Positions 8,322 to 58,611 of a stretch of 64,000 nucleotides of DNA are shown piece after piece. The DNA is taken from NCBI GenBank assembly GCA_036154155.1, contig JAYZLP010000020.1, positions 13,849-77,848 of the forward strand, in the 5' to 3' direction. The stretch is from Thermoplasmatota archaeon. GTDB taxonomy: Archaea; Thermoplasmatota; Poseidoniia; Poseidoniales; Thalassarchaeaceae. Position 1 is the stretch's first letter. Each line of letters starts with the position of its first letter. The translations under genes and the position numbers were made by a program. Under the pieces are notes generated by a model. That model was not told the origin of the DNA and ran no database searches. It was given only the letters and a program-made list of their open reading frames with translations.

Positions 8322-9023
8322 TCAGCCCAGAATGTCGTCAAGCAGAGATGATGCCCCTATCCTGAGCCTGCTTCTCCCATGGATTCCTGCCTCATTAGAA
8401 TCCACGATTCCGACCAATCTCTCGACGTCTTCCATGGTCCTGATCCCCCCTGAAAGCTTGACGCCCCTCTCCTCGCCCATCGTAACCGAATGGCGCTTCA
8501 CCTCGAAGGAGAGTAATCGGGCGTCCTCATCGCTGCAAGCCCCCCTCATGCCTGTGCAGCTTTTCACGAAGTCGGCCCCAGACGCCAGTACCATGCGAGT
8601 CACTGCTCTGATGTCGTGCTCCCCAAGTAGAGGAGTCTCTATGATTACCTTGAGGGCCCGTCCGGCCGATGCATCCCTCATCGCCTTGAGTAAGGCCAGG
8701 TCCCGCTCGCCCGGAAAGTCGTCCGAGTCACGCGGCTCTAGGACGCAATCGATCTCGTCCGCCCCATGTCTAACCGCCGTTTCAACCGATTCCCGAATCG
8801 AAGAGGCATCGTTCCAGCCCACGGGGAATCCACCAGCCACTGCAGCCACCGAGATCCCTTCATCTAGCAGGCCCCTGACCAATTCAACGTGCTCAGAGAA
8901 TACGCACACGGCTGCAGGCCTGTGTTCGTTCGCCCTCTCGCACAGCATTTCCAAATCTGCATACGAGGCCTCGTGGTCCAGCAATGTGAGGTCCAGTATG
9001 TCGAGAACGCCTCTAGCGTCCAT
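8322..9023 (-). CDS. deoC: Deoxyribose-phosphate aldolase
   Basis: DeoC-type TIM barrel with FVKSCTG and KLSGGIRT Schiff-base lysine motifs; start trimmed to MDARGVLD. Confidence 0.8.
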   Translation of the reverse strand: MDARGVLDILDLTLLDHEASYADLEMLCERANEHRPAAVCVFSEHVELVRGLLDEGISVAAVAGGFPVGWNDASSIRESVETAVRHGADEIDCVLEPRDSDDFPGERDLALLKAMRDASAGRALKVIIETPLLGEHDIRAVTRMVLASGADFVKSCTGMRGACSDEDARLLSFEVKRHSVTMGEERGVKLSGGIRTMEDVERLVGIVDSNEAGIHGRSRLRIGASSLLDDILG

Positions 9024-9031
9024 GAAACCAC

Positions 9032-10123
9032 TCACCCGTGCCTTGCCTCGAATCGTCTCATGAACGAAACCAGGGCTTCCACGCTTTCTATCGGGCATCC
9101 GTTGTACATGCTCGCCCTGATGCCTCCGACGCTCCGGTGCCCCTTCAGCCCACCTAGCCCCGATGCGGCGGCCTCCTCAAGGAATGCCGGCTCCAGATCA
9201 TGGTTTGCTAGCCTCCATGTGACGTTCATCACAGATCTTGAATCAGTATTGGCGTGAGGGACCCAGAATGGCGTCCTATCCAGCTCCTCGTAGAGAAGTG
9301 ACGCCTTCTTTCTGTTCCTCTCAATGGCCCCCTCTAGGCCCCCGTTTCTCTCGACCCATGCCATGACCCTGTCAAGGACGAAAATTCCGAATGTGTTCGG
9401 GGTGTTGAACATGGATCCCTTGGAAACGTGGGTCCTGTAGTCCAACATCGTGGGAACCCCCTCTCCAATCTTGGAAACTGCCCAGGGAGATAGGATGACT
9501 AGGGTTACCCCGCTGGGCCCCAGGTTCTTCTGCGCCCCGGCATAGACGAGGTCATGGGATGATACGTCCAAGGGGGTACCGCAGATGTCCGAGCTTGCAT
9601 CTACCACCCGTGGCTTTCCTCCGCTGTCCGGAATGTGGTGGAACTGAGTTCCAAAGAGAGTATTATTTGACGTGTAGTGCATGTAGCTCGCTTCGTCCCT
9701 AATGGTATAATCGCCATTGCTAGGGACAGAAACGAATCCGTCATCGGACCCGTCCCAAGCCGCCTCAGCATCGCCAACCCTACCTGCCTCCTTGATGGCC
9801 TTCTGAGACCAACCGCCCGTGATTAGGAAGTCCGCCTTCCCTTCATTTCCAAGCAAATTAAGGGCAGTCATGTAGAATTGTGTGGAAGCACCTCCCTGCA
9901 GGAATAGGACATGGTAATCATCAGGAACAGAGAGAACCCTTCTGACCCTCTCTTCCGCGGAGTCGATTACGTTCTGGAAGGTCCCACTTCTGTGAGAAAC
10001 CTCCAGTAGCCCAAAACCGCTGCCCGATAGGTTCGGAAGAGCCTCGGCTACTTCGGATACCACCTCGAGGGGCAGTACAGCTGGCCCCGCGCCGAAATTG
10101 TGCACCCGGCCCGCCCCGGTCAT
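9032..10123 (-). CDS. serC: Phosphoserine aminotransferase (class V aminotransferase)
   Basis: NFGAGPAVLP N-terminus; overall SerC/SerC-like architecture. Confidence 0.8.
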   Translation of the reverse strand: MTGAGRVHNFGAGPAVLPLEVVSEVAEALPNLSGSGFGLLEVSHRSGTFQNVIDSAEERVRRVLSVPDDYHVLFLQGGASTQFYMTALNLLGNEGKADFLITGGWSQKAIKEAGRVGDAEAAWDGSDDGFVSVPSNGDYTIRDEASYMHYTSNNTLFGTQFHHIPDSGGKPRVVDASSDICGTPLDVSSHDLVYAGAQKNLGPSGVTLVILSPWAVSKIGEGVPTMLDYRTHVSKGSMFNTPNTFGIFVLDRVMAWVERNGGLEGAIERNRKKASLLYEELDRTPFWVPHANTDSRSVMNVTWRLANHDLEPAFLEEAAASGLGGLKGHRSVGGIRASMYNGCPIESVEALVSFMRRFEARHG

Positions 10124-13826: not shown

Positions 13827-13912
13827 TGGCGCCGAGAGAGGGATTTGAACCCCCGCGTCCAATGGACAGTGGATTTCGAATCCACCGCAATACCGGGCTA
13901 TGCGATCTCGGC
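13827..13912 (-). tRNA. tRNA-Ser (anticodon CGA), long variable arm, CCA encoded
   Basis: Reverse complement gccgaga..ggtgga-ttCGAaa-tccac-tgtccattggacgc-ggggg-ttcaaat-ccctc-tctcggc-g-cca. Confidence 0.8.
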
Positions 13913-29165: not shown

Positions 29166-30347
29166 TCACTCAGGCCGAATTGAACGGCTAATCACTATTC
29201 TTTGAACCTCTTGGGTACCTTCGTAAATTTGAGTAATCTTTGCATCCCTGAAGAATCTCTCAACCGGGAAGTCTGTTGTATAGCCATATCCTCCAAGGAC
29301 TTGAACCGCCCTCTCTGTAACCCACATAGCAGTATCTCCAGCAAAGAGTTTGGCCATGCTGGCTTCTTTGGTATGCCTCGGTGCGCCTTCATCGTAATGC
29401 CGCTTTTTAGCCCAAGCTGCCCTGTATACCATCATCCTCGAGGCATCGATCCTTGTTGCCATTTCAGCCAGATAGTTCCCAATACTCTGGTGGAGGGCAA
29501 TTGGCTTTCCAAATGCCTCTCTTTCGTGAGCATAGTTCAATGCAGACTCATAAGCCCCCTGGGAGATTCCCAAAGCTTGGGCGGCAATCCCAATTCTCGA
29601 ATTATCCAAGGCGTTCATCGCTATCGGGAAACCTTCTCCCGGCCCTTTCAGTACATTCTCTATTGGAACCTTGCAATCCTCAAGGAGCAGGGAGCATGTG
29701 TCAGAGGACCTTATCCCTAGCTTGTCCTCCTTCTTCCCGACAGAAAAACCATCAAATGACTTCTCGACAATGAATGCAGTAGTCCCTCCATGCTTCTTTA
29801 CTCCGAAATCTGGATGATCAACATCCTTCGCAAATAGAACGTAAATATCGGCACTGCTTCCATTGGTAACCCACATCTTCTCGCCGTTTAGGATGTAATG
29901 CGTCCCGTCATCGCTTAGCTTGGCCTTGCAGCTCATGGCCGCAGCATCGGTTCCCGCGCCTGCCTCTGAGAGGGAATAGGCCCCTATTTCATCACCAGAG
30001 AGCCTAGTTAGGTACTCCTTCTTTTGAGACTCATTTCCATGAAGGGCTATTGTTTTCGAACATAGGCCGACATGAACGCAGTACATTACCGAGAACGAGG
30101 GATCCACCCTTGCAAGTTCTTCCACTATTATTGCCTCAGTGATGTCGTCTACCGGGCTACCGCCATATTCCTCGGGGATGGTAATTCCCTGGAGGCCATA
30201 TTCGCAGAATGAAACCCACTCATCAAGTGGGGCCCTCTGTTCCCTGTCCCTCTCCAAAGTTGAAGGTGAAAGAACATCCTCCGCAAATCCTCTGACCATC
30301 TCTCGAATCATGCTCTGCTCCTCATTTTCAGCGAAATCCATGGGCAT
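29166..30347 (-). CDS. Acyl-CoA dehydrogenase
   Basis: ACAD domains (YSLSEAGAGTDAA, FIVEKSFDGFSVGKKEDKLGIRSSDT, QVLGGYGY); start trimmed to MPMDFAENEE to avoid the GcvH-like gene. Confidence 0.8.
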   Translation of the reverse strand: MPMDFAENEEQSMIREMVRGFAEDVLSPSTLERDREQRAPLDEWVSFCEYGLQGITIPEEYGGSPVDDITEAIIVEELARVDPSFSVMYCVHVGLCSKTIALHGNESQKKEYLTRLSGDEIGAYSLSEAGAGTDAAAMSCKAKLSDDGTHYILNGEKMWVTNGSSADIYVLFAKDVDHPDFGVKKHGGTTAFIVEKSFDGFSVGKKEDKLGIRSSDTCSLLLEDCKVPIENVLKGPGEGFPIAMNALDNSRIGIAAQALGISQGAYESALNYAHEREAFGKPIALHQSIGNYLAEMATRIDASRMMVYRAAWAKKRHYDEGAPRHTKEASMAKLFAGDTAMWVTERAVQVLGGYGYTTDFPVERFFRDAKITQIYEGTQEVQRIVISRSIRPE

Positions 30348-30455
30348 CTCCGATACTCCGAAAGGCCAGACATTGTTAATCCCTCTTGGGAAAAATTGAG
30401 TTTTCGATAAGCGAATAGTTGAAAACGGAATTCGGTCGGCGGCCGGACGAATCAC

Positions 30456-30989
30456 ATGGCAGATGGCGACTACTCGGAGTTCAGCATCGCTCACGACCGA
30501 CTGTACACATTGGAGCATCTATGGCTCCAAGTCCTCGATGAAGACAAGGACGAGGGAACTACAAGCATCAAGATAGGGCTTAGCGAATTCCTAATGGCTG
30601 AGTATGGAGAAGTAATTCAGGCAGTGCTAGCGAGGCCAAGGGACGAAGGTGAGTTTGAGATGGAGGGCGGATCTGGCCTTTCGGAGGATGATGAGGCCGA
30701 AGAAACACCAACAATGTCTACCGCTGGTGACCAAGTTGGGATTGATGATTTGATGATTACTATTACCACTAAATTCGACGGAGAATTTGATAGAATCCTA
30801 TTCAATGCCCCATTCCCTTGCACAATTTCGGAATTGAATGGGCATGTAGAGGACAATCCCGACTTACTCAACGAGGAAGCATATGGGGATGGATGGTGCA
30901 TCATTGTCAAGACGCAATCTGACGATTTCGACGAGGACCAGTTCTTGAATAAGGACGAATACATCGAGATGTTGAATGAGCTCCCCTAG
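30456..30989 (+). CDS. gcvH: Glycine cleavage H-protein-like lipoyl-carrier paralog with ~45-aa acidic insertion
   Basis: YTLEHLWLQV..IKIGLSEFLMAEYGEVIQAV..ITTKFDGEF (Lys aligned to the lipoyl-Lys)..LLNEEAYGDGWCIIVK. Confidence 0.6.
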   Translation: MADGDYSEFSIAHDRLYTLEHLWLQVLDEDKDEGTTSIKIGLSEFLMAEYGEVIQAVLARPRDEGEFEMEGGSGLSEDDEAEETPTMSTAGDQVGIDDLMITITTKFDGEFDRILFNAPFPCTISELNGHVEDNPDLLNEEAYGDGWCIIVKTQSDDFDEDQFLNKDEYIEMLNELP

Positions 30990-32290
30990 GGCCACTTCAA
31001 TATCTCCCAATCCCTGGGTTCTGAGTCCTGCCAGTCTATTTCTTTGAGTAGTTCTAGGACCTCCTCGTAAGTAGTCAGGTCATCTTCCACTTGCTTCCTG
31101 TGGAGCCACCCCTTCAGCATACCTAGGCGTGGACCAGGGGGTAGTCCAGTTTCTCGAGAAAGATCATCCCCCTTCACCAGTGGGGAAATGCCCGCCCTAG
31201 GCCTACCGACGCTCTCTAGGGCCTCTGAGAAAGATTCTGTATCCTGGCCTAGCCTGCCTAAGTATTCAAGGACTCTCCCCCTCCTTTGTTCTGGCAGTGC
31301 AGCAGCGAACCTTCTGAGATAGGCTTCACTGTGGTCTAATATCTCCCCCTTGCTATCATGTAAGAAACAAACCTCATCCAAAGTAGAATTGCTTAGCATC
31401 AATTCCCCACGTAGAATTCCCCGTAATTCTCCCCCACTTCCATCAAAATTCCTGGAAAGAATCGCTAGGTTAACTTCCATATCACTGCCAAGCGGACACT
31501 CAGATTTCTCCAACAAAGATCCAGAAATAGCCCCTAAAACACCCAGTTCCTCCATCTTGGAAACTATCTCGTCAGCCCAATCTCCAGAGAGAATAATGGA
31601 TAATTCAGAGCATATCCTTTCCTTTGAAACCATTTCCAGCATCCCAAGACTGGATGAAATAGCATCACACAATGAATCATCCATCTTCCGCACGCCCTCC
31701 TCACCTCCATCCATGAACCTGAATGCCCTTAGAATTCTCAAACCATCCTCAGAGATCCTTTTTCGGGGATCTCCAACGGATGTCAGTAATCCATTCAGAA
31801 GGTCCTCCCTTCCGCCGAATGGATCAATCAGTGAGCCCTCTTCGTATGGGTATTCTAGAGCCATCGCATTAATTTTGAAATCTCTTCTGGAAAGGTCATC
31901 CTCAATATTAGTACCGAATTCGACTTCATCAGGCCTCCTTCCATCACCGTATGATCCATCACTCCTAAGTGTAGTAACTTCCCAAATTTCGTTACCCCAA
32001 ATCCCCTCATCCAGCCTCACAGAAACAGTTCCGTATTTCGCACCAACCATCAGGGATCTTGGGAAAATGGCCTTCACCTCATCCGGATGGAGTGTAGTTG
32101 CAATGTCAACATCTGTATCCTTTCTTCCCGAAATAGATTCTCTGACCCATCCCCCAACTATCCATGCTTCACCCCTGCTTCTTAGGCCTTCAAGGACTAA
32201 CAAATCCTCGGGCCGCAGTAATGGATGTGCATGTCCCATGCACGTTCCGTGAGCCCCAACAACATCACTTCTTCGGAAAATAAGGCTCAT
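30986..32290 (-). CDS. Class II (PolyA-pol/CCA head domain) nucleotidyltransferase family protein
   Basis: GGWVRESISG..DVDIAT, SRRDFKINAM, ISEDGLRILRAFRF are diagnostic class II tRNA-NT/PAP motifs. Confidence 0.7.
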   Translation of the reverse strand: MSLIFRRSDVVGAHGTCMGHAHPLLRPEDLLVLEGLRSRGEAWIVGGWVRESISGRKDTDVDIATTLHPDEVKAIFPRSLMVGAKYGTVSVRLDEGIWGNEIWEVTTLRSDGSYGDGRRPDEVEFGTNIEDDLSRRDFKINAMALEYPYEEGSLIDPFGGREDLLNGLLTSVGDPRKRISEDGLRILRAFRFMDGGEEGVRKMDDSLCDAISSSLGMLEMVSKERICSELSIILSGDWADEIVSKMEELGVLGAISGSLLEKSECPLGSDMEVNLAILSRNFDGSGGELRGILRGELMLSNSTLDEVCFLHDSKGEILDHSEAYLRRFAAALPEQRRGRVLEYLGRLGQDTESFSEALESVGRPRAGISPLVKGDDLSRETGLPPGPRLGMLKGWLHRKQVEDDLTTYEEVLELLKEIDWQDSEPRDWEILKWP

Positions 32291-33321
32291 GGGACGAGGT
32301 CTTCATGGCCCCCGAGCATTTCGCCCCCTTCTTCTCTTGGCGCCCCTGGATTGGCAATGTCGAAGCTGAACATTTCCCCTATGACGGGCCATAATGCGCC
32401 CATCCACTCCATTTCAGACATTAGAAGCTCAATTACCGGATGCTCGAGAATCTCCTCTTCTGTAGAGTCTTCATCAATCTCTGGTATTCCATCGGGAAGC
32501 CCCCTGAGCGATTCAATGAGCCCCTCCAGTCTGACCAGTGCCTCACTTTCCGGATCTATCGCGCCACTCATCATCTCGACAATATCTTCGAGGTGTTCAG
32601 CAAGCAGTTTCGGCTCGAATGGATTCCTGTCTGAATCCCCAATATCAACAGGACCGAATACGACTCCTCCTAAGTCGGTGTCCATCCAGCCTCCTCCTTG
32701 CCATTCTCTTTTCAGTAGTCTTTGATTCAAGTGCCCTCCAAACGGCCCCAGAATGAAGCCACCCTCCTCAATTAGCAAATCAAGATAGTGCGGTATTTCC
32801 CTCACAGCTCCCGTAATTAGAACCCTGCTAACGTCTCTATTCCACTCCGGATCCTCCATTGATTCGGGCCCAAGGACCCTAATCACTCCATTTGCCTCTA
32901 TCTTTTCGAGACACTCAATTGTATGCCTCACAACCTCTTCATTTGGCTCAATAACAGAAACTGTCCCTCCAGGCCCAATTATCCAATCAATTAGTGATGC
33001 GATATATCCGCCCTTGGATCCTATGATTATTACATTCTGATTCTCTGAGATTTCAAGGTGGTGCAACAATGTCACCACCATGTGTGGAGCGGAAATTGTC
33101 TTCGCACTCCCTGTTTCGGTGATCATGAAGGGGACGGGCCTATCATGCCAGAAGCCCTCTAGGGAGTGCTCGGTGAAAATTGACGGATCCACTTCAGACA
33201 TAGCACCAAAAATCTCGGAATTCACTGGAATTCCGGCTGCAATCAGTCGTTCTAGAAGCTCAGAGATGTCTGTCAACGCCCTCTCCCCCGGAGGCCGTTC
33301 AGCCGCAGGCCATTTGAACAC
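32287..33321 (-). CDS. pcm: Protein-L-isoaspartate O-methyltransferase with C-terminal extension
   Basis: TISAPHMVVTLLHHLEI..VIIIGSKGGYIASLI..GGTVSVIEPNEEVV..LDLLIEEGGFILGP is the PIMT fold. About 120 aa follow the methyltransferase domain. Confidence 0.75.
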   Translation of the reverse strand: MFKWPAAERPPGERALTDISELLERLIAAGIPVNSEIFGAMSEVDPSIFTEHSLEGFWHDRPVPFMITETGSAKTISAPHMVVTLLHHLEISENQNVIIIGSKGGYIASLIDWIIGPGGTVSVIEPNEEVVRHTIECLEKIEANGVIRVLGPESMEDPEWNRDVSRVLITGAVREIPHYLDLLIEEGGFILGPFGGHLNQRLLKREWQGGGWMDTDLGGVVFGPVDIGDSDRNPFEPKLLAEHLEDIVEMMSGAIDPESEALVRLEGLIESLRGLPDGIPEIDEDSTEEEILEHPVIELLMSEMEWMGALWPVIGEMFSFDIANPGAPREEGGEMLGGHEDLVP

Positions 33322-33342: not shown

Positions 33343-33418
33343 GGGTCCGTGGTCTAGGGGTTATGACGTTGCTCTTACAAAGCGAAGATCGCAGGTTCAA
33401 TTCCTGCCGGACCCACCA
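33343..33418 (+). tRNA. tRNA-Val (anticodon TAC), CCA encoded
   Basis: gggtccg..gttgct-cTACaaa-gcgaa..gcagg-ttcaatt-cctgc-cggaccc-a-cca; body nearly identical to the tRNA at 8246. Confidence 0.85.
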
Positions 33419-42707: not shown

Positions 42708-44201
42708 TTGGAAATGAGTAACAATGAGCGTACATTGCTCAAATTCATGTTATCCGAACCATCCAGAACTTGGACCTTGGACGAACTCCTTTCAGGTGCT
42801 GGCTGGGATGACCAGGTCCATGTCGCAGGCTCGGGAATGGCTCTTTCCGAGTTAGGCCTAGTAACCGTAAATGAAGAAATCGAGGCCTTTGTTTCCCTGG
42901 GCGAAGAGGGTGTGAACGCCCATCGCGAGGGCCTCCTGGAGTTCAGAATTTGGAACTGCCTCTCTTCTCTGCCTGAATCAGAGAGGACGATGGATAGGCT
43001 ATTCGAGGAGGGGTTTGAGCGCCACGAAGCAGGTCCCGGCATAGGCCTACTGAAATCCATGGGGCTTTCAATCGATTCTGGAAGGCTGGTCGTCGAGGAC
43101 GAGATATCAATTTCTAAGCAGATTTCTGTAAGATCAGAATTCATCTCTTCTTTGTCAGAAGGCCCCGTTGCCAAGTTAAAACTAGATGACGAAATGGTTA
43201 GCCATTTCCTGGGGAGGAAGGGATTAATTCTGATCAATGAGGAAACCTCCAGATCTTGGTCACTAACCGATGCCGGCTCATCGATTGAACAATCAGAACT
43301 TGAGCATGTTGAGATGATCGGTGAGGTAACGCCAGAGTTGCTCCAATCAGAAAACTGGAGGGGTGCGAAGTTCAAGCCCTTTGATGTAAATTCACCAGCA
43401 CCAATTCCCATGGGCGGGCGCCCCCATCCCATGCAGGCGTTGATAGAGAGGATAAGACAGGTCTTCTTGGAGATGGGGTTCTCGGAGATAGAGGGGGACT
43501 TTGTGCAGTCTGCAGGATGGAATATGGACGCTCTTTACATCCCGCAATCTCATCCAGCAAGGACCATGCAAGACACCTTCTACCTGTCTGAGCCCAGTCA
43601 AATCGATGTCGATGAACACTATCTCGATCTTTGGTCCAAGGTTCATGAGCACGGACACGACACAGGAAGTAAAGGCTGGGGCGGCTCCTTTGACAAGGAT
43701 GAGTCACGCAAATCATTACTGAGGACTCATACGACTGTAAACACTGTGAGGCACATCGCGGAGAATCCCGATGAACCCTCAAGGGTTTTTGGCATTGGAA
43801 GGGTTTTCCGTCAGGAGACGATCGATCGAACCCACCTTCCTGAATTCCACCAGATTGAGGGGATAATCCACGAGGAAGAAGCTAGCCTTCCGATGCTTAT
43901 CACAACTCTGAAGACGTTCTACTCCAAGATGGGCTACCCAGATGTCCGAGTACGACCCGCCTATTTCCCATACACGGAGCCTAGTGTGGAGGTGGACATC
44001 CTTTGGAGGGGCCAATGGCTTGAGCTAGGGGGGGCTGGAATATTCCGCCCAGAGGTCACGGAGCCGCTAGGCTCCAAGTGGCCCGTGTGTGCATGGGGGA
44101 TGGGGCTAGAGAGACTGGCAATGATTATACTAGACCTGGACGATATACGGCAGTTGTACCAACCAGATCTTGAGAGGTTGAGTCGGATGCCCATACTCTG
44201 A
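42708..44201 (+). CDS. pheS: Phenylalanyl-tRNA synthetase alpha subunit (archaeal/eukaryotic type)
   Basis: Class II core motifs FRPAYFPYTEPSVEVDI, GAGIFRPEV, AWGMGLERLAMI. Confidence 0.85.
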   Translation: MEMSNNERTLLKFMLSEPSRTWTLDELLSGAGWDDQVHVAGSGMALSELGLVTVNEEIEAFVSLGEEGVNAHREGLLEFRIWNCLSSLPESERTMDRLFEEGFERHEAGPGIGLLKSMGLSIDSGRLVVEDEISISKQISVRSEFISSLSEGPVAKLKLDDEMVSHFLGRKGLILINEETSRSWSLTDAGSSIEQSELEHVEMIGEVTPELLQSENWRGAKFKPFDVNSPAPIPMGGRPHPMQALIERIRQVFLEMGFSEIEGDFVQSAGWNMDALYIPQSHPARTMQDTFYLSEPSQIDVDEHYLDLWSKVHEHGHDTGSKGWGGSFDKDESRKSLLRTHTTVNTVRHIAENPDEPSRVFGIGRVFRQETIDRTHLPEFHQIEGIIHEEEASLPMLITTLKTFYSKMGYPDVRVRPAYFPYTEPSVEVDILWRGQWLELGGAGIFRPEVTEPLGSKWPVCAWGMGLERLAMIILDLDDIRQLYQPDLERLSRMPIL

Positions 44202-46146
44202 CCACGATTACTGCCATAATCAGGAATGACAGGATCTCTCCACCATTAGGCGGGATAATTTCAGAGAAGTCCGCTATTGAATTCGATACTTCGGACGCCT
44301 GACCCGGAGGCCCTCCTCCGCAACCATCGGGCGGAGGTCCAATCCCGGGGCCCCATGTTTCGCCGTGTCCAGAGCAGTCAGCGCCACCTCCTTCCCCATT
44401 CTCAGAGTAAACCTCCCCTCTGTAGCAGTTTATGAAATAGGGAAAACCAATCCCTCCTTCTCCATTCTCCCAGGTTGTGTGATAGTGGTAGATTCCATCT
44501 GGATAGTCCGGCGTTGGACCGTATTGGCCGTTACAAGAATCCAAGTCTCCGATCCCAGGAGAATATTCGTAGTCATCTATTCCGTTATACCCGGTCTCGC
44601 CTTCCTTGAGCCTGTATGAGGATTTCATTTCAGTTAACTCTCCTTCATCATCCCATCCAACGAAACCATAGATTGGGTATCCATCTAAGGCGAAGCCCAC
44701 TATTGGAGAGTGACTTGTGATTGACCTCGTTGACTCCAAGCTGTAATCAGCCCAGGTTTCTCCACTTTCTTCATCGGGGTGCCAGTGCAAACAGTTCGCA
44801 TCGGCGTGGTAGTGAAACTCCCCGCCTGGGCCTGAGTGGGCATGACAGATCCCTAGCCACACATGCTGCCTATCTTCCTCGTAGGCCCCCTCCTGTCCAG
44901 CTACTGCATCCCCACCGGGCCCATCCTCAGGCCCAAAAATAGGCACCCCATTCGCAGCGAAAGCAACTGCTCCCCTTTCCGGTGCCATGGTGCAACCATC
45001 GGTGGAGATAGATGGATCACACCCAGTCTGATTAGTGGGCTCGAGTGGTATCGTCCATACATGTTCCTGTGCGCTTGTGCAGCAGCCGGGTCCAGACTCA
45101 AGGTCGTGATTTGGAAGGCCATTGGCGGAAATTTGTATATGGGTCTCGTTGGTGGTAAAGCTGAGTTGGCAAACGTGATTGTCAAATTCACTAGTGTTGT
45201 AGTCGTCTATTCCTTCAACCTGTTCTGTGGAGTCACACAATAGCACATCTTCCCACCATTCCTCTGTTCCAGCCTCGATCTCCTCCGATTGTTCATCGTA
45301 CTCGCACGAACCGTCATCCTCCTCAGCGCCAGAGTCGTAGTTGTTGGCCTCTGGGTCTGTGCAACCAGTGACTGGCGCTGGCTCGTCGTACTCGCACGAA
45401 CCGTCATCCTCCTCAGCGCCAGAGTCGTAGTTGTTGGCCTCTGGGTCAGTACACCCTTGAGTTGGTTCTGCTTCAGTTTCCAGAACAGTAATGGTGACAA
45501 TTTTCTGACTTGATGTTTCAGTCCATATGCCACACGTAGCCTCTAGTGAGACCGTGGTGTTTTCCTGTAGGTTGGAAAGCTCCAGAATGTAGCCCCCATC
45601 TTCGTCTATTGGCAGCCCTAGGCTGGACTCTTCGATATCGGTGGTGCTCCACCTCAATTCACATGTCGAAGCGTCATCGTGGATTACAAGTCCGGAGATC
45701 GGAGCATCCCCTCCACGTTCAACATGGAACTCGCCCTGAGAAGTCGTAAGCTCCGTTTCACTCTCTTCAGGATAGTGAATAATGAAAGCTTTGGACCACG
45801 ACGTCTCTTGCCCCAGACTGTCTATTGCCACAACCTTCAGTGCATGGCTACCCACATCTAGTTCAGAGATGTCAATTGAGATCACGCCATACTGATCGGG
45901 TAAATCAGCGATTTCATCTCCGTCTAGTGTGACCAATAGTGAGAGGTCTGACATCTTCTCGTCGCTTATGGTGATTCTAACCGTGTCAACCGTGCCTATC
46001 AGTATCGTATCGGGAAGATCGGAGTCAACAGTGGGCGCGCGATTAAGTCCCTCGTCTTCAACGCCGAAGAAAAGGATGCCCGCCATCACACTGGTAATCA
46101 TGAGCCCAGCCAGCATCAATGACCTCGCGGCCCCTCCATCTTCCAT
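44125..46146 (-). CDS. Secreted YHYH-domain protein with Ig-like N-terminal region, tandem Cys-containing 30-aa repeats and C-terminal hydrophobic anchor
   Basis: Signal anchor. Repeats TQGCTDPEANNYDSGAEEDDGSCEYDE x2. C-terminal GEFHYHADANCLHWHP ... YHYHTTWENG motifs. The 3' end overlaps the pheS 3' end by 77 nt. Confidence 0.6.
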   Translation of the reverse strand: MEDGGAARSLMLAGLMITSVMAGILFFGVEDEGLNRAPTVDSDLPDTILIGTVDTVRITISDEKMSDLSLLVTLDGDEIADLPDQYGVISIDISELDVGSHALKVVAIDSLGQETSWSKAFIIHYPEESETELTTSQGEFHVERGGDAPISGLVIHDDASTCELRWSTTDIEESSLGLPIDEDGGYILELSNLQENTTVSLEATCGIWTETSSQKIVTITVLETEAEPTQGCTDPEANNYDSGAEEDDGSCEYDEPAPVTGCTDPEANNYDSGAEEDDGSCEYDEQSEEIEAGTEEWWEDVLLCDSTEQVEGIDDYNTSEFDNHVCQLSFTTNETHIQISANGLPNHDLESGPGCCTSAQEHVWTIPLEPTNQTGCDPSISTDGCTMAPERGAVAFAANGVPIFGPEDGPGGDAVAGQEGAYEEDRQHVWLGICHAHSGPGGEFHYHADANCLHWHPDEESGETWADYSLESTRSITSHSPIVGFALDGYPIYGFVGWDDEGELTEMKSSYRLKEGETGYNGIDDYEYSPGIGDLDSCNGQYGPTPDYPDGIYHYHTTWENGEGGIGFPYFINCYRGEVYSENGEGGGADCSGHGETWGPGIGPPPDGCGGGPPGQASEVSNSIADFSEIIPPNGGEILSFLIMAVIVVRVWASDSTSQDLVGTTAVYRPGLV
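45296..45447. repeat. Perfect 62-nt identity within a 90-bp tandem direct repeat (2 copies) inside the YHYH gene
   Basis: tcgtactcgcacgaaccgtcatcctcctcagcgccagagtcgtagttgttggcctctgggtc occurs at 45296-45357 and again at 45386-45447. Confidence 0.85.
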
Positions 46147-48068: not shown

Positions 48069-48561
48069 TAATTACTATTGCTAGTCCCAAGAGAATCAGT
48101 GATAGAGGGGAGAAATCAGAATCATTGCCGGCCGCTGCATCGTCTTGGTCATTGTTGAATGAGTAGCTCCCTGGGGCCACATTTTCAGTGTGGTTGTCTA
48201 GTAATATACTCAGGCTAAGTGTTTTCCAAATAGTGCCATTCGAGAAAATCTGAATTTCATAGTCTCCGGATGTCCAATTTATCGGGTCCAGCCAAACTCT
48301 GCACTCGTCATCCGTGCTTGTAGAAGATGGCCCTGCCGTGCAATCAATCTCGTATACTCCATCCGCCCCTATGTCCAACGTTATGACTCTCTCGAAGTCA
48401 ACCACATTGTAGAAAATCAATGTGTCATTCTGCAGTACCTGTGCTGATTCTGGCTGCAAACTCTCTCCTCTCATGACGAAGGCGAATGTGTTGGCCCCAT
48501 GAGCGGACACGGTTGGAGCGATCAACATCACAATCGCCAATGAGACAAGTATCCTTCTCAT
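48037..48561 (-). CDS. Small secreted protein, predicted mature N-terminal His, C-terminal TM anchor (putative CopC-like metal-binding protein)
   Basis: Signal MRRILVSLAIVMLIAPTVSA then HGANTF...; beta-rich; C-terminal LSLILLGLAIVIIARKKGESDE. Confidence 0.5.
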   Translation of the reverse strand: MRRILVSLAIVMLIAPTVSAHGANTFAFVMRGESLQPESAQVLQNDTLIFYNVVDFERVITLDIGADGVYEIDCTAGPSSTSTDDECRVWLDPINWTSGDYEIQIFSNGTIWKTLSLSILLDNHTENVAPGSYSFNNDQDDAAAGNDSDFSPLSLILLGLAIVIIARKKGESDE

Positions 48562-50519
48562 TCGTCACTAGCCTCCGCTGACCAAAGCGGAGGGTAGTTG
48601 TATCGAGGGTCAAAATCCTCATCGAACTGCACAACATAGATGCCGCTCACCATCTCTGAAATGAATACAAATCCCCTCGGATCATACTGCAGACCCCAGT
48701 CGAATGGAATCATGCATGAAGCCCAACAATCCGCCATATCGTATCCTAGTGTGTTAGTTGGGTCTTCAATCCACGTAGGTCCGGCTGGAAGGTAGTAACC
48801 AAGGGTGTGCGTTGGAGCTAGCTCCTCAATGCATTTGAACCCGCATTCGGGATTTGGGGACCCGCCAGTCCACACTATCTCTTCCCAAATTTTCCCGTGG
48901 TCAGTCAACCAGTTTCCAGCATGGTAGTGAGTCCAATAGACGTGTCCATTGACTCCTGTATCGCCATTGTGCGGGCTGAAAATGTATCCTCCGGGGATAT
49001 AGTGCTGCGGGTGTTTGGAGCCGTTGGCCAAGGTCCCCTCCCCCGGCAGTCTCCATTTGGATACGAGGAATGGCATTGTGGGGTCAGTAGTATCGATTGT
49101 CCACAGGAATCCCGTATGGCCCGGGTTGCTGCCATATTCGGGAGCAATAATGGTGTAGTGGCGCCAGTTCCCCCCGTAAGTCGCGTCTTCCGGTCCAGTG
49201 CCACATTCCGATGGCCACTTGGACTGGGGCACGTACTCACTAATTCCATTGCAGACCAAGTGGTCGTATGGAACTGCGTAGTGTATGTTGTCGTTGCCCT
49301 GCTCAGCATCTAGCCATTCTTCGGGAGTCATATTGGCATGACCTCCTCCGTCGGGGCCATACCATCCTGAGTCATCAGTAGGGCACCCCAGCCATCTGCC
49401 AACTTCTGGCGGCCAGGAGACTCCAAGTGGATCAGCTACCGAGGGAGGCTCACTGACGTCCACTATTCGAAGACCAGCTCCCCAATAAGAGGCCACAAGC
49501 AGCCGTTGCTTTGTGATAGGGTGAACGAAGTAAACGTGATCGTGATTGAATATCGACCCGCCGCAAGTGGTGTAAGGCTCGGGCGTGTATCCGCCCCACC
49601 TGAGTATTTCCCTGCTGGAATTATCGCCAGTGATCCAAGAGTCGAAACCATTAGGCACGTAGAATACCTGAGTCCCTTTGTAGAATGTTCCGCTACTGCC
49701 TTCAACCATTTCCGGATATGGGTCTGCGCCGAAAAGGAACAGGCTGCATTCTTCATAGGGGTCAAAGGCACCATCCCAGTCGCAATAAACCGCTAGGTCT
49801 TGATTGTGGAATCCGGCTGGCGGGTTGTTCCACTCAGCTACCTTCACAGGACGAGTTTTGTCTCTTACATCAATAACATCGAGCCTGTTAGTTCCACTGT
49901 TTGCATCATCGTCATTAGGTATCGGGTCCAGTTCGCTGTTCGTCAACTCATGGTTCACAAGGACCCAGTTGTTGTCCTTTGTTACCTTTATGTCAATCAT
50001 TCTGGCAACTTCTGCGTAATAGGTGGATAGCAAAATTATGTTATTGGGCTCACTGATATCGAGAATCTCGAATTGGTTGTAGCTAGAAACGTACGCATAG
50101 CAGCCACCAGTTCCATCGCCGTATATCTCGCAGTCCTCATGGAAGTTGCCTTCGATAGCTATCTCTGAGTTGTCCCCCGGTGTCGGTCCGACATTCTTGA
50201 ATTCCTCATCACAAGGCCTACCGGCAGTATCGTCAAGTTCCGCCGGCGGCTTAACATTGCCATCGCAATTCAGATTGTGGTAGTCGATAAGAACCGCATT
50301 CTCAGTCCATAGCCGGTGGGAGAATAAATCATTGTGAGAGTGATTTCCGTCCTCAATCTCCGTCACCGGATCTATCCAGCCAGAGTCCCCTCCTTCATTT
50401 CCACCTGAATCATCCAATATCGACAAGCATCCAGACAGTGGAGCTAGAACCATCAATCCGACCATTACCAAGCACGGACTAACCCGCATGCCCCGACGCG
50501 CGCGACCAACGCCTATCAA
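48558..50519 (-). CDS. LVIVD-repeat beta-propeller lipoprotein
   Basis: Lipobox LAPLSGC; repeats LVASYWGAGLRIVDVSEPPS etc. Confidence 0.65.
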   Translation of the reverse strand: MIGVGRARRGMRVSPCLVMVGLMVLAPLSGCLSILDDSGGNEGGDSGWIDPVTEIEDGNHSHNDLFSHRLWTENAVLIDYHNLNCDGNVKPPAELDDTAGRPCDEEFKNVGPTPGDNSEIAIEGNFHEDCEIYGDGTGGCYAYVSSYNQFEILDISEPNNIILLSTYYAEVARMIDIKVTKDNNWVLVNHELTNSELDPIPNDDDANSGTNRLDVIDVRDKTRPVKVAEWNNPPAGFHNQDLAVYCDWDGAFDPYEECSLFLFGADPYPEMVEGSSGTFYKGTQVFYVPNGFDSWITGDNSSREILRWGGYTPEPYTTCGGSIFNHDHVYFVHPITKQRLLVASYWGAGLRIVDVSEPPSVADPLGVSWPPEVGRWLGCPTDDSGWYGPDGGGHANMTPEEWLDAEQGNDNIHYAVPYDHLVCNGISEYVPQSKWPSECGTGPEDATYGGNWRHYTIIAPEYGSNPGHTGFLWTIDTTDPTMPFLVSKWRLPGEGTLANGSKHPQHYIPGGYIFSPHNGDTGVNGHVYWTHYHAGNWLTDHGKIWEEIVWTGGSPNPECGFKCIEELAPTHTLGYYLPAGPTWIEDPTNTLGYDMADCWASCMIPFDWGLQYDPRGFVFISEMVSGIYVVQFDEDFDPRYNYPPLWSAEASDE

Positions 50520-50554
50520 ATTCCCCTTTTGTGGGGCGCGGCCCTAAAGGGCCG

Positions 50555-52300
50555 TCAGAACGTCGAAACTGGCCCATAGGGCTTGTCAATGTCCAATTGA
50601 ACGATGTATAGGCCACTAGTGATACAGGACAGGTATGTGTAACCTTCATGATATTCGGCAGCCCATAGGAAAGGAGTCCAACCGAAGTCATAGAACGCAC
50701 TATCCAAGGGAGTCCCATCAGCACCATGAGGCAGGTGGAAGCCAACCGTGGAGTCCATGTGAACGGCCGTTTTGTTCTCGTCTGAGAGTCCAGCAACCAT
50801 GAGTGTCTCGATATCTACTATCCATAGTCCAGCGTGGTAGCTAGACAAGTATATCCTGCCGTCCCAAGCACCACCGTGGCTATTGTCTGGAAGTCCTGGT
50901 AGACCAGTCTGGAAAATCTGAGTATCTGCGTTATGGGGGCTGAAAAGTAACCACTCTTCCCCGTCCGGTATGTGGTGGTCCCAAGCAAAGGGAATTTCCC
51001 ACCCATGGATCAATTCGGGTTTGAATCTGAGATTTCCATTTACCATTTCATATCCGGTTGTATCTAGAAGGTAGCCCATCCCAGTTCCTACGGTGGTGCT
51101 CAATACTTCTGTGGCGATAATGGTGAGGTGACGCTTACCGACCGGGTATCCAAGGTGACTAGCATCCACCATGTCATCAATCGGCTCTGCGTAGTGGATG
51201 TAAGATGCCCTCCCTCCGTTTTCATTGCTGGTACATCCGCAGTCTATCTCTCCATCACCATCGAAGTCTTCGAACTCCATCCACTGCCCAACCTCTGGTG
51301 CCCTCCAAAGGCAACCAGCCTGGGAACCTCCAGAAGCTCTACACAATGAGCCGTGCCAGAGGTATTCTGCAAGATCCTTTCCTGGATGGGGCACATCCGA
51401 AACGTCGAAGATCCTGAGTCCCGCTTCCCAATAAGCTCCGTAGACATAGGTCCTGGCAAAACGTGGATCATTCGAGTCCTCGCCTGGCCACGTTTGCACC
51501 GTCATATCGTGGATGTAGATCCATCCCCCAAGAGTAGACTCCCACGAAACTTCAGCCTCTCCAAGCTTCACAATCCTAGGCAGATCTCCATAAGCAGCGA
51601 AATTCAGATGTGCAATTGTAATGCCGCCGCATGCATCGCCCTGCCCTACATCGCATGATTCGTAGTCCGGATTAGCGACAAAGATGTACCATTCGTTGTC
51701 GATCATGTGAGTGTAAAGGTTGTGTGGGCCACTCGGGTGGTCAAAGTCGTACCATGAATCCACCCAGCTCGGATTAGACTTGTCCGTGACATCCACTAGT
51801 GTCACTGTGACCTGAGCTGGGTCCTCCCAAGATCCAACATTGGGATCTGCTGCCCCGGGGTCAACAAGCTGATTCTGCACGATTACATATTCCCTAGCAT
51901 TGTATTCCAGATATTTGACATCCAAGACCTGTGTGTTCGGGTCGTAGTAAACCCCAGTAACTGTTGTATTGTATGGATCAGTCACATCGACGATATGCAT
52001 TTCTGACCATCCTGCAATGTATGCATATGTTTTCCCATCAGGGGAGTCTGCAACTTGGACCTCGGCATTACCCGGGGCTGTAAGTGGATTGTAGCTAACT
52101 GGCAATATATTATCCGTGTAAAGAATATGCTGACTAGCGTTTCTATGATCATGCCCCTCTTCCTGGATCAGTGGGTCCTCCATTCCTTCGACAATCGTAG
52201 CACTATCTTCGGTTTCCTCTATCAGCATAATCGACGCCACAACTGCCGCCAAAACACAACCTGCAAAGGCCAGTGCCAGAACTATCCTCCCGGACTCCAC
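50555..52300 (-). CDS. LVIVD-repeat beta-propeller protein (paralog)
   Basis: Signal anchor; IAGWSEMHIVDVTDP, GAYWEAGLRIFDVSDVPHP, SYHAGLWIVDIETL. Confidence 0.65.
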   Translation of the reverse strand: MESGRIVLALAFAGCVLAAVVASIMLIEETEDSATIVEGMEDPLIQEEGHDHRNASQHILYTDNILPVSYNPLTAPGNAEVQVADSPDGKTYAYIAGWSEMHIVDVTDPYNTTVTGVYYDPNTQVLDVKYLEYNAREYVIVQNQLVDPGAADPNVGSWEDPAQVTVTLVDVTDKSNPSWVDSWYDFDHPSGPHNLYTHMIDNEWYIFVANPDYESCDVGQGDACGGITIAHLNFAAYGDLPRIVKLGEAEVSWESTLGGWIYIHDMTVQTWPGEDSNDPRFARTYVYGAYWEAGLRIFDVSDVPHPGKDLAEYLWHGSLCRASGGSQAGCLWRAPEVGQWMEFEDFDGDGEIDCGCTSNENGGRASYIHYAEPIDDMVDASHLGYPVGKRHLTIIATEVLSTTVGTGMGYLLDTTGYEMVNGNLRFKPELIHGWEIPFAWDHHIPDGEEWLLFSPHNADTQIFQTGLPGLPDNSHGGAWDGRIYLSSYHAGLWIVDIETLMVAGLSDENKTAVHMDSTVGFHLPHGADGTPLDSAFYDFGWTPFLWAAEYHEGYTYLSCITSGLYIVQLDIDKPYGPVSTF

Positions 52301-54282: not shown

Positions 54283-55437
54283 ATGGGAAGCATGCCTCCT
54301 GTCCGGACCGCTCTATTTGAGCAGCATATTGAGTCGGGAGCAAACATCGTCGACTTCCACGGCTTCGAACTACCGATATGGTACACATCGATCCAGGAGG
54401 AGCACCTGGCAACCCGAAACTCTGCCGGGCTTTTCGATGTCTCCCACATGGGATTTTTCCGTTTCCACGGCAGTGGTGTGTTGTCATGGCTACAGTCTGT
54501 TGGCACTCAGGAGTTTTTGAACTTCGCAAGTGGGAGGTGCGGATACACCCATTTCTTGGACCCAAAGGGGAACATTATCGATGACATGATTTTTGGAGTC
54601 AAAGATGATGATGAGATTCTGGGTGTCCCAAATGCATCCATGGTGGAAACCATGTTTGAGTGGTTTTCTTCCCTACTGCCGTCGGACGGATCCATCTCAC
54701 TGGAAGATCTCTCTACTAAGACTAGCATTTTGGCGCTGCAGGGACCCAATTCCGCCAAGATAATTTCCGACACGTTGGGAGAGCAAAACGCCGTTGGAAG
54801 ATTTCGATGCCAAGAGATAGAAGAGAATGATTTCGGAATCACGGGGTGGATCCAGGGTACGGGGTATACGGGGGAGTCCGGGGTGGAGATCTTTGTCCCC
54901 AACGAGCATGCGCCCAAGCTTTGGTCGGCCTTGCTTGAAATCGGCTCAGAAAATGGGATTGTCCCGGTTGGGCTAGGTGCTCGTGACACTCTGAGGTTGG
55001 AGATGGGATACCTCCTTTCGGGCCAGGACTTCCTCTGGCCAGGTCTTGGAGAAGCCCCAGATTTTGGACTTCCGGAGGATTTCCTTGCCAGGAACACCGT
55101 CGAGACCGCCGTCCCCTTCGGATTAAGCATGGACCATGATTTCATTGGCCGAGACAGCCTCGTCTCTTCCTTAGAGGGCAATGATCGTTGGCATGCACTA
55201 TTATGTCAGGAGAGGGGCCCATCTCCTAGGCCCGGACACAGTGTGCTGGACGGGCCTAAAGAGGACGCTCAGTTGATTGGTTATGTGACTAGTGGAGCGC
55301 CTTCACCTTCAATGGGGGGTACGGGAATCGCCATGGCCTATGTTACTGGAATGGTCGTGGGTGACGACGTTTGGATTCAAGCAAGTCGTAGGCGTAGAGT
55401 TAGGGCTAAGATAGTAAGGCCACCTTTCATACGATGA
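54283..55437 (+). CDS. gcvT: Glycine cleavage system T protein (aminomethyltransferase)
   Basis: LFEQHIESGANIVDFHGFELPIWY, GLFDVSHMG, folate-binding domain. Confidence 0.85.
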   Translation: MGSMPPVRTALFEQHIESGANIVDFHGFELPIWYTSIQEEHLATRNSAGLFDVSHMGFFRFHGSGVLSWLQSVGTQEFLNFASGRCGYTHFLDPKGNIIDDMIFGVKDDDEILGVPNASMVETMFEWFSSLLPSDGSISLEDLSTKTSILALQGPNSAKIISDTLGEQNAVGRFRCQEIEENDFGITGWIQGTGYTGESGVEIFVPNEHAPKLWSALLEIGSENGIVPVGLGARDTLRLEMGYLLSGQDFLWPGLGEAPDFGLPEDFLARNTVETAVPFGLSMDHDFIGRDSLVSSLEGNDRWHALLCQERGPSPRPGHSVLDGPKEDAQLIGYVTSGAPSPSMGGTGIAMAYVTGMVVGDDVWIQASRRRRVRAKIVRPPFIR

Positions 55438-55488
55438 CGGCCTCAGAACGTATAATTCGCATGTTGCCGTGACAAACCTCATTGCTGA

Positions 55489-57645: not shown

Positions 57646-58487
57646 AGATTAGCGACCTCAAAGGCCTCCTCAATCATTTCCTCGAGGCTTATTTGGGGCC
57701 TAAAGCCGCATCTGTGTTCCAGATACCAAGCATCTACAATTCCCCACACTTCAGCTTCCGAATTCTGATTCAGTTCTGCAGTGGCCCCAGTTCTCTGATT
57801 GTAGATTTCAGACAAGTCGTTCATTGTTACGCCCTTGCCAGAGCCCACTGCGAAACTCTCTCTCGTGAGTGGCGGATCCTGCAAAACAGTTTCAATGACC
57901 CGAACTAAGTCCTCCACGTGAATGAAATCTTTGACATCCTCGCCCGAACCGGGAACGTTGACCCATCCCATCTGACTTTCGACAGCCCACCTGTGCAGTA
58001 TCCCATTTCCAGGGGGCCCATCAAGAGGGACGCCCTGAACGTTAGATGCCCTGATCACACTAACTGGCCTGCCTGCCTCGGCTCTTTCTAGGGCGTTTTC
58101 TTCAATCCACAGCTGTCCCTCTGCAGCAGTGTCCCTTGGAGAGAGGGTGGATTCAGGTCCATAGTAGTCGTCACCAGGATACCACTGTGGGTGAACCCTA
58201 AGCGTCCCCAGAATGATCAAGTGCAGCTCTCCATGCCTATCTACGGCATCCAATACAGGTCTTGCAGCCTCCCTCATGACTATCTTCGCCTCCCTCTCGT
58301 TTCGAGCTACTGACGTGTCTAAAGGGCGCGAATTGATGTGTATCAGGGCCGTACATGGAGTAAGCAGCACATCTATCGAAGTCTGGTCCTCTAGGGCCTC
58401 ATCTGGAATGACCACTGCCCTGTCTCCAAGCGCTTCCACTATGTAGGGGGCCACGAATGAATCCGATGCAGTAATGGCGACTCTCAT
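57642..58487 (-). CDS. NAD(P)-binding epimerase/dehydratase-like (SDR-related) protein
   Basis: Rossmann-like N-terminus (MRVAITASDSFVAPYIVEAL) and overall length; weak. Confidence 0.45.
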   Translation of the reverse strand: MRVAITASDSFVAPYIVEALGDRAVVIPDEALEDQTSIDVLLTPCTALIHINSRPLDTSVARNEREAKIVMREAARPVLDAVDRHGELHLIILGTLRVHPQWYPGDDYYGPESTLSPRDTAAEGQLWIEENALERAEAGRPVSVIRASNVQGVPLDGPPGNGILHRWAVESQMGWVNVPGSGEDVKDFIHVEDLVRVIETVLQDPPLTRESFAVGSGKGVTMNDLSEIYNQRTGATAELNQNSEAEVWGIVDAWYLEHRCGFRPQISLEEMIEEAFEVANL

Positions 58488-58611
58488 GCTAGCATGTGGC
58501 TCTCTCTCCGAAGCAATAAGAGTGTGTCGGTGGAATGTTAGTCAATTTGCAGCCTCTCGACCGAAGAAAATCATATACTCTCTCGACGGCCATTCATCCC
58601 GAGGGCGCAGG

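Follow-up and report, generated by a model that had tools for sequence, protein, structure and literature searches.

A class II tRNA nucleotidyltransferase as the probable CCA-adding enzyme of Marine Group II archaea

The split between class I and class II CCA-adding enzymes has long been used as a clean marker that separates archaea from bacteria and eukaryotes. Contig JAYZLP010000020.1 (assembly GCA_036154155.1) carries a gene, cca, that does not respect this split. The genome is that of a Marine Group II (MGII) archaeon (Poseidoniales, Thalassarchaeaceae), and the 64,000 nucleotides analysed (positions 13,849 to 77,848 of the contig, hereafter the window) contain the archaeal markers PolD small subunit, aIF2alpha, TFB, PAC2 and archaeal-type aminoacyl-tRNA synthetases; in their midst, the product of cca has the domain, motifs and predicted fold of a class II nucleotidyltransferase, as the original prediction had recognized. 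What does such an enzyme do in an archaeon, and how did it come to be there? The analysis makes it quite likely that cca encodes a functional class II ATP(CTP):tRNA nucleotidyltransferase of the Bacillus type, lacking an HD domain, which would provide housekeeping CCA addition in Marine Group II, probably as its sole enzyme of this kind, and would act mainly in repair after an early entry that displaced the class I enzyme. The premise that archaea use class I enzymes as a rule, on which the original prediction rested, has been overturned by a recent preprint, whose supplementary table includes this lineage (bioRxiv 10.64898/2026.05.29.728689).

Motifs and predicted fold

The mechanically called open reading frame (ORF) spans 30986..32290 on the reverse strand and encodes 434 aa, from which the residues below are numbered. 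The features of the gene and its product are as follows.

30986..32239, reverse strand: predicted coding sequence of the class II CCA-adding enzyme (tRNA nucleotidyltransferase), M18 to stop, 417 aa (ORF, PF01743, match to 1miv, AlphaFold2 and Foldseek, orthologue starts)
32240..32290, reverse strand: 17-codon 5' extension of the mechanical ORF, M1-C17 (M1 ATG missing and in-frame stops in relatives L003-L005)
32105..32155, reverse strand: motif A, GGWVRESISGRKDTDVD, residues 46-62, with the predicted catalytic carboxylates D60 and D62 (regular expression; aligned to GGAVRD...GDVD of 1miv)
31931..31966, reverse strand: basic/acidic motif and flexible loop, RSDGSYGDGRRP, residues 109-120 (gapless alignment to KTDGDYEDYRRP of 1miv)
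31868..31888, reverse strand: motif B, RRDFKIN, residues 135-141 (regular expression, 1miv alignment; R135, R136 and D137 invariant)
31799..31825, reverse strand: motif C, DPFGGREDL, residues 156-164 (regular expression, 1miv alignment; D156, G160, D163 and L164 invariant)
31736..31750, reverse strand: motif D, EDGLR, residues 181-185, the putative amino-acid template for CTP and ATP (regular expression, 1miv alignment; E181, D182 and R185 invariant)
31604..31627, reverse strand: motif E, SKERICSE, residues 222-229 (regular expression, 1miv alignment, orthologue alignment)
30989..31042, reverse strand: Trp-rich C-terminal tail, ...IDWQDSEPRDWEILKWP, residues 417-434 (W420, W428, W433 and P434 invariant in 27 orthologues)

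Residues 42-169 belong to the PF01743 family (PolyA_pol head; E=5e-30, 104.8 bits against a gathering cut-off of 23), and the top NCBIfam model is that of the Bacillus-type CCA tRNA nucleotidyltransferase, PRK13299/NF009814, matched over residues 32-252 only (E=5e-58, 196.9 bits). The closest solved structure by sequence is the CCA-adding enzyme of G. stearothermophilus, 1miv (E=2.6e-41, residues 29-257), followed by the CCA-adding enzymes of Planococcus (5e-40) and human mitochondria (1.5e-27) and the poly(A) polymerase (PAP) of E. coli (1e-19), while the T. maritima CCA enzyme (1.5e-14) and the A-adding enzyme of A. aeolicus (1e-13) rank lower. The archaeal class I architecture (PF01909 with PF09249) gave no match in the cca protein.

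Invariance was judged on an alignment of 27 Poseidoniales orthologues (A1), which also served as input for the AlphaFold2 model. The RRD, EDxxR and DxD motifs named in the original prediction were recovered, the last with D60 and D62, but motif A reads GGWVRE rather than the predicted GGxVRD; D62 is invariant, and position 60, the first carboxylate, is D or E among the orthologues. The flexible loop is near-invariant. The Trp-rich tail has the consensus ...DWxDSxxxxWPxLxWP in all Poseidoniales sequences. The lack of an HD domain was also confirmed, with neither a PF01966 match in Pfam nor an H...HD pattern in a pattern search of the protein. It is no peculiarity, however: class II enzymes of the Bacillus and human types normally lack this domain. 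The conserved FLHD at residues 309-312 was considered as an HD-domain remnant and rejected, having no upstream His and no PF01966 match.

The AlphaFold2 model has a predicted local distance difference test score (pLDDT) of 83.9 and a predicted template modelling score (pTM) of 0.79, with two low-confidence segments (pLDDT <50), namely residues 1-20 and residues 115-118, the latter as expected of a flexible loop. A Foldseek search of the PDB returned 46 matches at E<=0.001, all of them class II nucleotidyltransferases; CCA-adding enzymes fill ranks 1-18. The model aligns with 1miv_A over 417 columns (template modelling scores 0.70/0.77), so that the head-neck-body-tail ('seahorse') fold is present at full length, and the top full-length matches (1miv, 6qy6, 4x4w and 8cbm) are all CCA-adding enzymes. 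After 1miv_A come the psychrophilic, human mitochondrial and T. maritima CCA enzymes, and then the A-adding enzymes and E. coli PAP.

By the mechanism known from the family, the head domain would hold two Mg2+ ions through D60 and D62 of motif A, and E181, D182 and R185 of motif D would act as a protein template that chooses first CTP, then ATP. The change to adding A76 would depend on a remodelling of the pocket by motif C and the flexible loop (residues 109-120), and the helical body and tail would bind the acceptor/T-arm of the tRNA. Full CCA addition is most likely the activity of the enzyme.

The cca locus across Poseidoniales

Homologues at 50-99% identity number in the hundreds, and those that carry a name are assigned to Candidatus Thalassarchaeaceae, Thalassarchaeum or Poseidoniales; several orthologues are annotated by NCBI as CCA tRNA nucleotidyltransferase. 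A scan of one genome per GTDB species yielded 35 Poseidoniales loci, the best being that of UBA438 (92%); over the order, orthologue identities range within 44-99%. Poseidoniaceae (MGIIa) contribute the representatives at 36-43% identity. Wherever the contig extends, all 35 loci share the gene order PolD small subunit, CinA, (tRNA-Val), protein-L-isoaspartate O-methyltransferase (PIMT), cca, GcvH-like gene, acyl-CoA dehydrogenase (ACAD) and HMG-CoA synthase (HMGCS). Each assembly among the 35 loci has one such syntenic class II locus, within a limited search for paralogues. Since orthologues occur in both Poseidoniales families and in one gene order, cca is a vertically inherited core gene of the whole of Poseidoniales (MGIIa and MGIIb), neither sporadic nor a contaminant. 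The proposed sequence of events is that the gene entered before the divergence of MGIIa and MGIIb, would have displaced the archaeal class I enzyme and was then inherited vertically. The original prediction of a horizontally acquired gene therefore stands in part: an origin outside archaea is plausible, but the gene is no isolated oddity, being a conserved, syntenic enzyme of an entire order. It had named placement in an archaeal-specific clade of known function as grounds for refutation, and the enzyme does fall within such a clade, that of Poseidoniales, whose function would be the one predicted here.

Two of the orthologues are carried by KM3 fosmids, and the publication that is the source of these fosmids makes no mention of the gene (Deschamps et al. 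2014). A literature search for Poseidoniales together with tRNA nucleotidyltransferase returned nothing.

Comparison of orthologues places the conserved start at M18 (ATG at 32239), which gives a protein of 417 aa, so the 434 aa of the original prediction describe the ORF but not the conserved protein. The relatives L003-L005 (71-73% identity) lack the M1 ATG and have in-frame stops just upstream, orthologues in the 27-sequence alignment are mostly 412-417 aa long, and the 17-codon extension M1-C17 is probably untranslated. The DNA of this extension is nevertheless conserved as a block, TTATTTTCCGAAGAAGTGATGT (32262..32283, reverse strand), despite the loss of M1 in L003-L005. A related block, consisting of an AT-rich box followed by CCGAAG-N5-7-GATGT, lies upstream of cca in distant MGIIb loci (L009-L028), and across MGIIb the conserved block sits ~25-40 nt 5' of the cca start. 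From this position and conservation, block 32262..32283 is probably the archaeal promoter or a regulatory element of cca itself.

tRNA ends, probable absence of class I and rival activities

Seven tRNA genes were found in the window by ARAGORN, with and without introns, and Rfam, and all seven encode CCA. The original prediction had counted eight such genes; no eighth was detected across the window by intron-aware ARAGORN or Rfam. Genomic CCA is likewise present in 43 of 43 tRNA genes at the 35 related loci, which represent three species only (Val-TAC, Glu-TTC and Thr-TGT). In E. coli, all tRNA genes encode CCA and the full CCA enzyme, Cca, is retained and serves repair. By analogy with E. coli, since all sampled tRNA genes encode CCA, the MGII enzyme probably rebuilds 3' ends in the main, and its role is most likely 3'-end repair rather than de novo maturation, as the original prediction had suggested; its main job would be to restore ends nibbled by exonucleases. 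PMC4033280 contained nothing on the frequency of genomically encoded CCA.

Among the major ORFs of the window no class I domains were found. The wider case for the absence of class I comes from the preprint of Cassidy, Doktor, Betat, Morl and Prohaska (bioRxiv 10.64898/2026.05.29.728689), which reports class II CCA enzymes in Heimdallarchaeia, Pacearchaeota and monophyletic 'Euryarchaeota' clades. Class II is the sole CCA enzyme in several of those genomes, and the authors read the 'Euryarchaeota' clades as class I replacement; the Heimdallarchaeia enzymes, the only archaeal class II ones assayed there, add CCA in biochemical assays. Its Supplementary Table 1 scores Ca. Poseidonia alphae UBA255 as CCA1 No, CCA2 Yes, and gives the same scores for NP84, UBA605, UBA439, Cayman_51_deep, Guaymas_22 and Guaymas_23, the metagenome-assembled genomes (MAGs) that carry our loci L003, L027, L031, L010, L015 and L020, respectively. 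In all, more than 50 marine MAGs, 85-96% complete, are scored CCA1 No/CCA2 Yes in the preprint. A keyword search of its main text showed that neither Marine Group II nor Poseidoniales is ever named there. What is seen here is therefore one case of a phenomenon known from a preprint, which describes it for these very genomes. The displacement of class I by class II in Marine Group II would follow the replacement reading of those authors. Separately, the same table lists class I only in the small-genome marine MAGs UBA102, UBA488, RS352, Guaymas_31 and ARS1358, and according to the preprint some of these (its sp. 5, 6, 47 and 66, together with sp. 201) are nested between clades of class II. These MAGs may represent Marine Group III or another Poseidoniia lineage and could date the replacement.

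Several observations weigh against a full CCA-adding enzyme acting alone. The C-terminal half matches the Pfam body and tail models weakly, with weak hits to PolyA_pol_RNAbd and tRNA_NucTran2_2 downstream of the head; because the full-length fold matches are to CCA enzymes, this half is an ordinary tRNA-binding body and tail. The match to PRK13299, although that is the best-scoring model, falls short of the equivalog cut-off of 290 bits with its 196.9 bits, so the protein forms a separate subfamily. The gene has also diverged more quickly (44-55% identity within MGIIb) than the neighbouring ACAD and HMGCS genes (76-85%), a pattern that fits relaxed constraint on a repair-only enzyme but also functional drift. 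Finally, the evidence that class I is absent comes from a tblastn screen in the preprint, run on MAGs of 85-96% completeness, and the genomic-CCA sample is small (7 tRNA species in the window and 3 in related loci).

Fast evolution and CCA on all sampled tRNA genes would both suit an enzyme of partial activity, A-adding or CA-repairing, which would be tolerated since CCA is genomically encoded and full synthesis no longer selected; moreover, sequence is a poor guide to whether a class II enzyme adds A or CCA. We nevertheless regard partial activity as improbable, given that the motifs for C and A addition, EDxxR and the loop among them, do not vary within the order, that the NCBIfam A-adding model NF041569 scores 49.9 bits against a cut-off of 1440, that A-adding enzymes in the PDB rank far below CCA-adding ones by both sequence and fold, and that E. 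coli keeps a full CCA enzyme although its tRNA genes all encode CCA. CC-adding enzymes, for their part, are marked by a deletion in the flexible loop. Compared with the Bacillus-type enzyme, nothing is deleted from the loop of the MGII enzyme, and the CC-adding variant entertained in the original prediction is unlikely; the same deletion criterion is used in the pipeline of the preprint (bioRxiv 10.64898/2026.05.29.728689). An accessory enzyme working beside an undetected class I, for example in repair or in CCACCA tagging of unstable RNAs, appears slightly less probable still than partial activity. MAGs are incomplete, and both classes coexist in some archaea, such as Heimdallarchaeaceae and SZUA-158 (bioRxiv 10.64898/2026.05.29.728689), but the consistent CCA1 No/CCA2 Yes scores of the marine MAGs in that preprint and the lack of a class I gene among the major ORFs of the window speak against such a second enzyme, and the conservation of cca throughout Poseidoniales is in keeping with an essential role.

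A poly(A) polymerase, or a nucleotidyltransferase with a non-tRNA substrate, is very unlikely. PF01743 is common to PAP I, a weak match to PF12627 is named after PAP, and the protein matches the pcnB subfamily model TIGR01942 (E=4e-34); however, the PAP signature [LIV][LIV]G[RK][RK]F... is absent from the query and from 27 of 27 orthologues, the pcnB equivalog NF008634 reaches 70.8 bits where its cut-off is 702, E. coli PAP lies well below the CCA enzymes by sequence and fold, and a genome without class I needs a CCA enzyme. Least of all, with a probability close to nil, do we expect an artefact, be it a mis-assembled or mis-binned contig that brought in a bacterial gene, or a strain-specific transfer of very recent date. 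The best characterized relatives are indeed bacterial, but archaeal genes lie on both flanks, the gene order is identical in 35 independent assemblies, the orthologues diverge widely across the order, and the G+C content is unremarkable (0.48-0.50 for cca versus ~0.50 in the surrounding 16-56 kb).

Green-algal relatives, neighbours and known systems

The origin of the full CCA-adding enzyme favoured here was approached with an exhaustive homologue search of 1.84 billion cluster representatives, of which 150 representatives were considered for relationships. The matches formed a gradient, from MGIIb through MGIIa-like sequences aligned end to end to most others, which aligned mainly over head and neck. 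The nearest relatives outside Poseidoniales are green-algal nuclear proteins (43-50% identity over head and neck) from a fusion family that comprises P0145 (Mesostigma viride EP00899_P015993), P0400 (Botryococcus braunii Bobra.0070s0090), the environmental P0143 and P0393, and P0147. Mesostigma viride is a streptophyte alga, and further members of the family are found on picoeukaryote contigs. These algal proteins are 650-980 aa long, with N-terminal extensions and a PF00929 RNase T-type DEDD exonuclease inserted between neck and body, and their genes (coding regions at 10001-12418 of L081 and 10001-12478 of L082) lie on eukaryotic contigs beside genes for multi-KOW Spt5, zf-CW, Sdh5 and pheophorbide-a oxygenase (PaO).

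A bootstrapped neighbour-joining (NJ) tree (Kimura distances, 365 columns, 78 taxa) recovered a clade of MGIIa, MGIIb and algal proteins in 88 of 100 replicates and MGIIb in 94 of 100, and an archaea-only clade excluding the algae in none of 100. A hidden Markov model (HMM) of the C-terminal domain, built from the 27 orthologues of A1, scored the exonuclease fusions at 53-98 bits, in the range of the MGIIa-like sequences (58-117), and the other full-length representatives at 45 bits or less; P0241, a eukaryotic transcript without the exonuclease domain, scored 30 bits. The Trp-rich tail is common to MGIIa/MGIIb and the algal fusions and absent from the inspected representatives outside this clade, which are presumed bacterial. 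On these sequence comparisons, a specific relationship between the MGII enzyme and the algal proteins looks real. More tentatively, we propose that the two share a specific common origin through inter-domain transfer between planktonic archaea and green algae, with the tail as a synapomorphy, and that the fusion couples tRNA 3'-end trimming to rebuilding; this composite proposal is somewhat less likely than not to hold. The algal fusion might then be a single-polypeptide enzyme for both steps. In the rough trees the algal proteins branch within the archaeal radiation, pointing to transfer from archaeon to alga, with the caveat that NJ on long branches is weak for direction. No named bacterial sister group emerged among the 150 representatives, most of whose clusters are without names, and a literature search for an algal nucleotidyltransferase-exonuclease fusion returned nothing. 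Atopobiaceae/Coriobacteriia, which made up all hits below the archaeal ones in the genome scan, were rejected as donors: they match over head and neck only, at 39-44% identity, and their appearance is an artefact of the scan patterns (peptides such as EAWIVGGW) rather than a sign of phylogeny.

The genes that flank cca, with the nearest tRNA gene, are the following.

32287..33321, reverse strand: PIMT, upstream neighbour with an acidic C-terminal extension (PF01135, E=2.8e-19)
30456..30989, forward strand: GcvH-fold protein, convergent neighbour with an acidic insertion of ~40 residues (PF01597, E=4.8e-11, C-terminal half only)
33343..33418, forward strand: tRNA-Val(TAC), CCA encoded in the gene, nearest of the candidate substrates (ARAGORN; CCA also on the orthologous tRNA of 28 related loci)

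The position of cca between a GcvH-like gene and PIMT is as originally described, but it is positional only. PIMT adjoins cca in 35 of 35 loci, with gaps of 0.5-1.5 kb between them in most, and its stop codon shares bases with the M1 ATG of the mechanically called cca ORF. The GcvH-like gene adjoins cca in 34 of 35, the contig of L035 ending before it is reached. A functional operon of cca with either neighbour was rejected, because cca has its own upstream block, the GcvH-like gene is convergent and in L026 (MED-G37) two added genes, for proteins of 331 aa and 137 aa (opposite strand), separate PIMT from cca at 8547-9962; from its sequence, the 331-aa protein is guessed to be a helical-repeat protein. 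The acidic extension of PIMT comprises ~120 residues and ends in a conserved motif, ...GGHEDL(V/I)P, which L001-L005 and L026 have as well. The expected lipoylation site of the GcvH-like protein is K in the window and its close relatives and S, N, E or a gap in the remaining ones, and since the lysine is not conserved, the protein is probably not a lipoyl carrier; the true glycine-cleavage genes T, P1 and P2 are located at 54283-61478.

Elsewhere in the window, the mechanical ORF of the acyl-CoA dehydrogenase (29166-30518, reverse strand) is ~55-60 codons too long at its 5' end, where it overlaps the divergent start of the GcvH-like gene (30456-30518); its Pfam domains begin at residue 65, and tblastn matches for several of the orthologous loci start ~40-60 residues into the ORF. 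A TPP riboswitch (RF00059, 269-370, forward strand, 58.9 bits, above the gathering score) lies directly upstream of, and overlaps, a sodium:solute symporter ORF (290-1822), which may be thiamine-related and riboswitch-controlled. Large proteins of eukaryote-like or surface type are clustered at 55489-57645 (forward strand), 48558-52300 (reverse strand) and 44125-46146 (reverse strand), and include two proteins with LVIVD repeats, an EF-hand protein of 718 aa whose gene lies between those for GcvT and GcvP, and a YHYH-domain protein beside two SCO1/SenC copper chaperones.

The locus is a well-anchored breach of the class I/class II rule, in that a whole, globally abundant archaeal order has an enzyme of the bacterial/eukaryotic type. 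The general point was already made in the 2026 preprint; the present result confirms it and gives the name Poseidoniales to one unnamed 'Euryarchaeota' clade. It adds that the replacement would be older than the separation of MGIIa from MGIIb and has a fixed neighbourhood in the core genome, that it is accompanied by CCA on every sampled tRNA gene, consistent with a repair regime like that of E. coli, and that the algal nucleotidyltransferase-exonuclease relatives provide a lead on gene exchange between archaea and algae and possibly on a new enzyme of tRNA-end turnover.

Compared with known systems, the Poseidoniales loci represent the same phenomenon as the enzymes of the preprint, in the same genomes, but synteny, the Trp-rich tail, genomic CCA and the green-algal fusion link are absent from its searched parts (main text and supplementary tables by keyword, sections 5 and 14; bioRxiv 10.64898/2026.05.29.728689). 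The algal fusions share the class II CCA-type scaffold and the Trp-rich C-terminal tail with the MGII enzyme and differ from it in their inserted exonuclease, N-terminal extensions and greater length. With E. coli Cca (PRK10885) the likeness probably lies in the setting, end repair in a genome with CCA-encoding tRNA genes, whereas the archaeal enzyme lacks the HD phosphohydrolase domain and scores 53.6 bits against that model's cut-off of 451. The Bacillus-type enzyme (1miv/PRK13299) and the archaeal one have the same head-neck-body-tail order, motifs A-E, a loop of equal length and no HD domain; the two are 27% identical over the full structural alignment, and the archaeal enzyme is set apart by its added Trp-rich tail, its divergent C-terminal half and GGWVRE.

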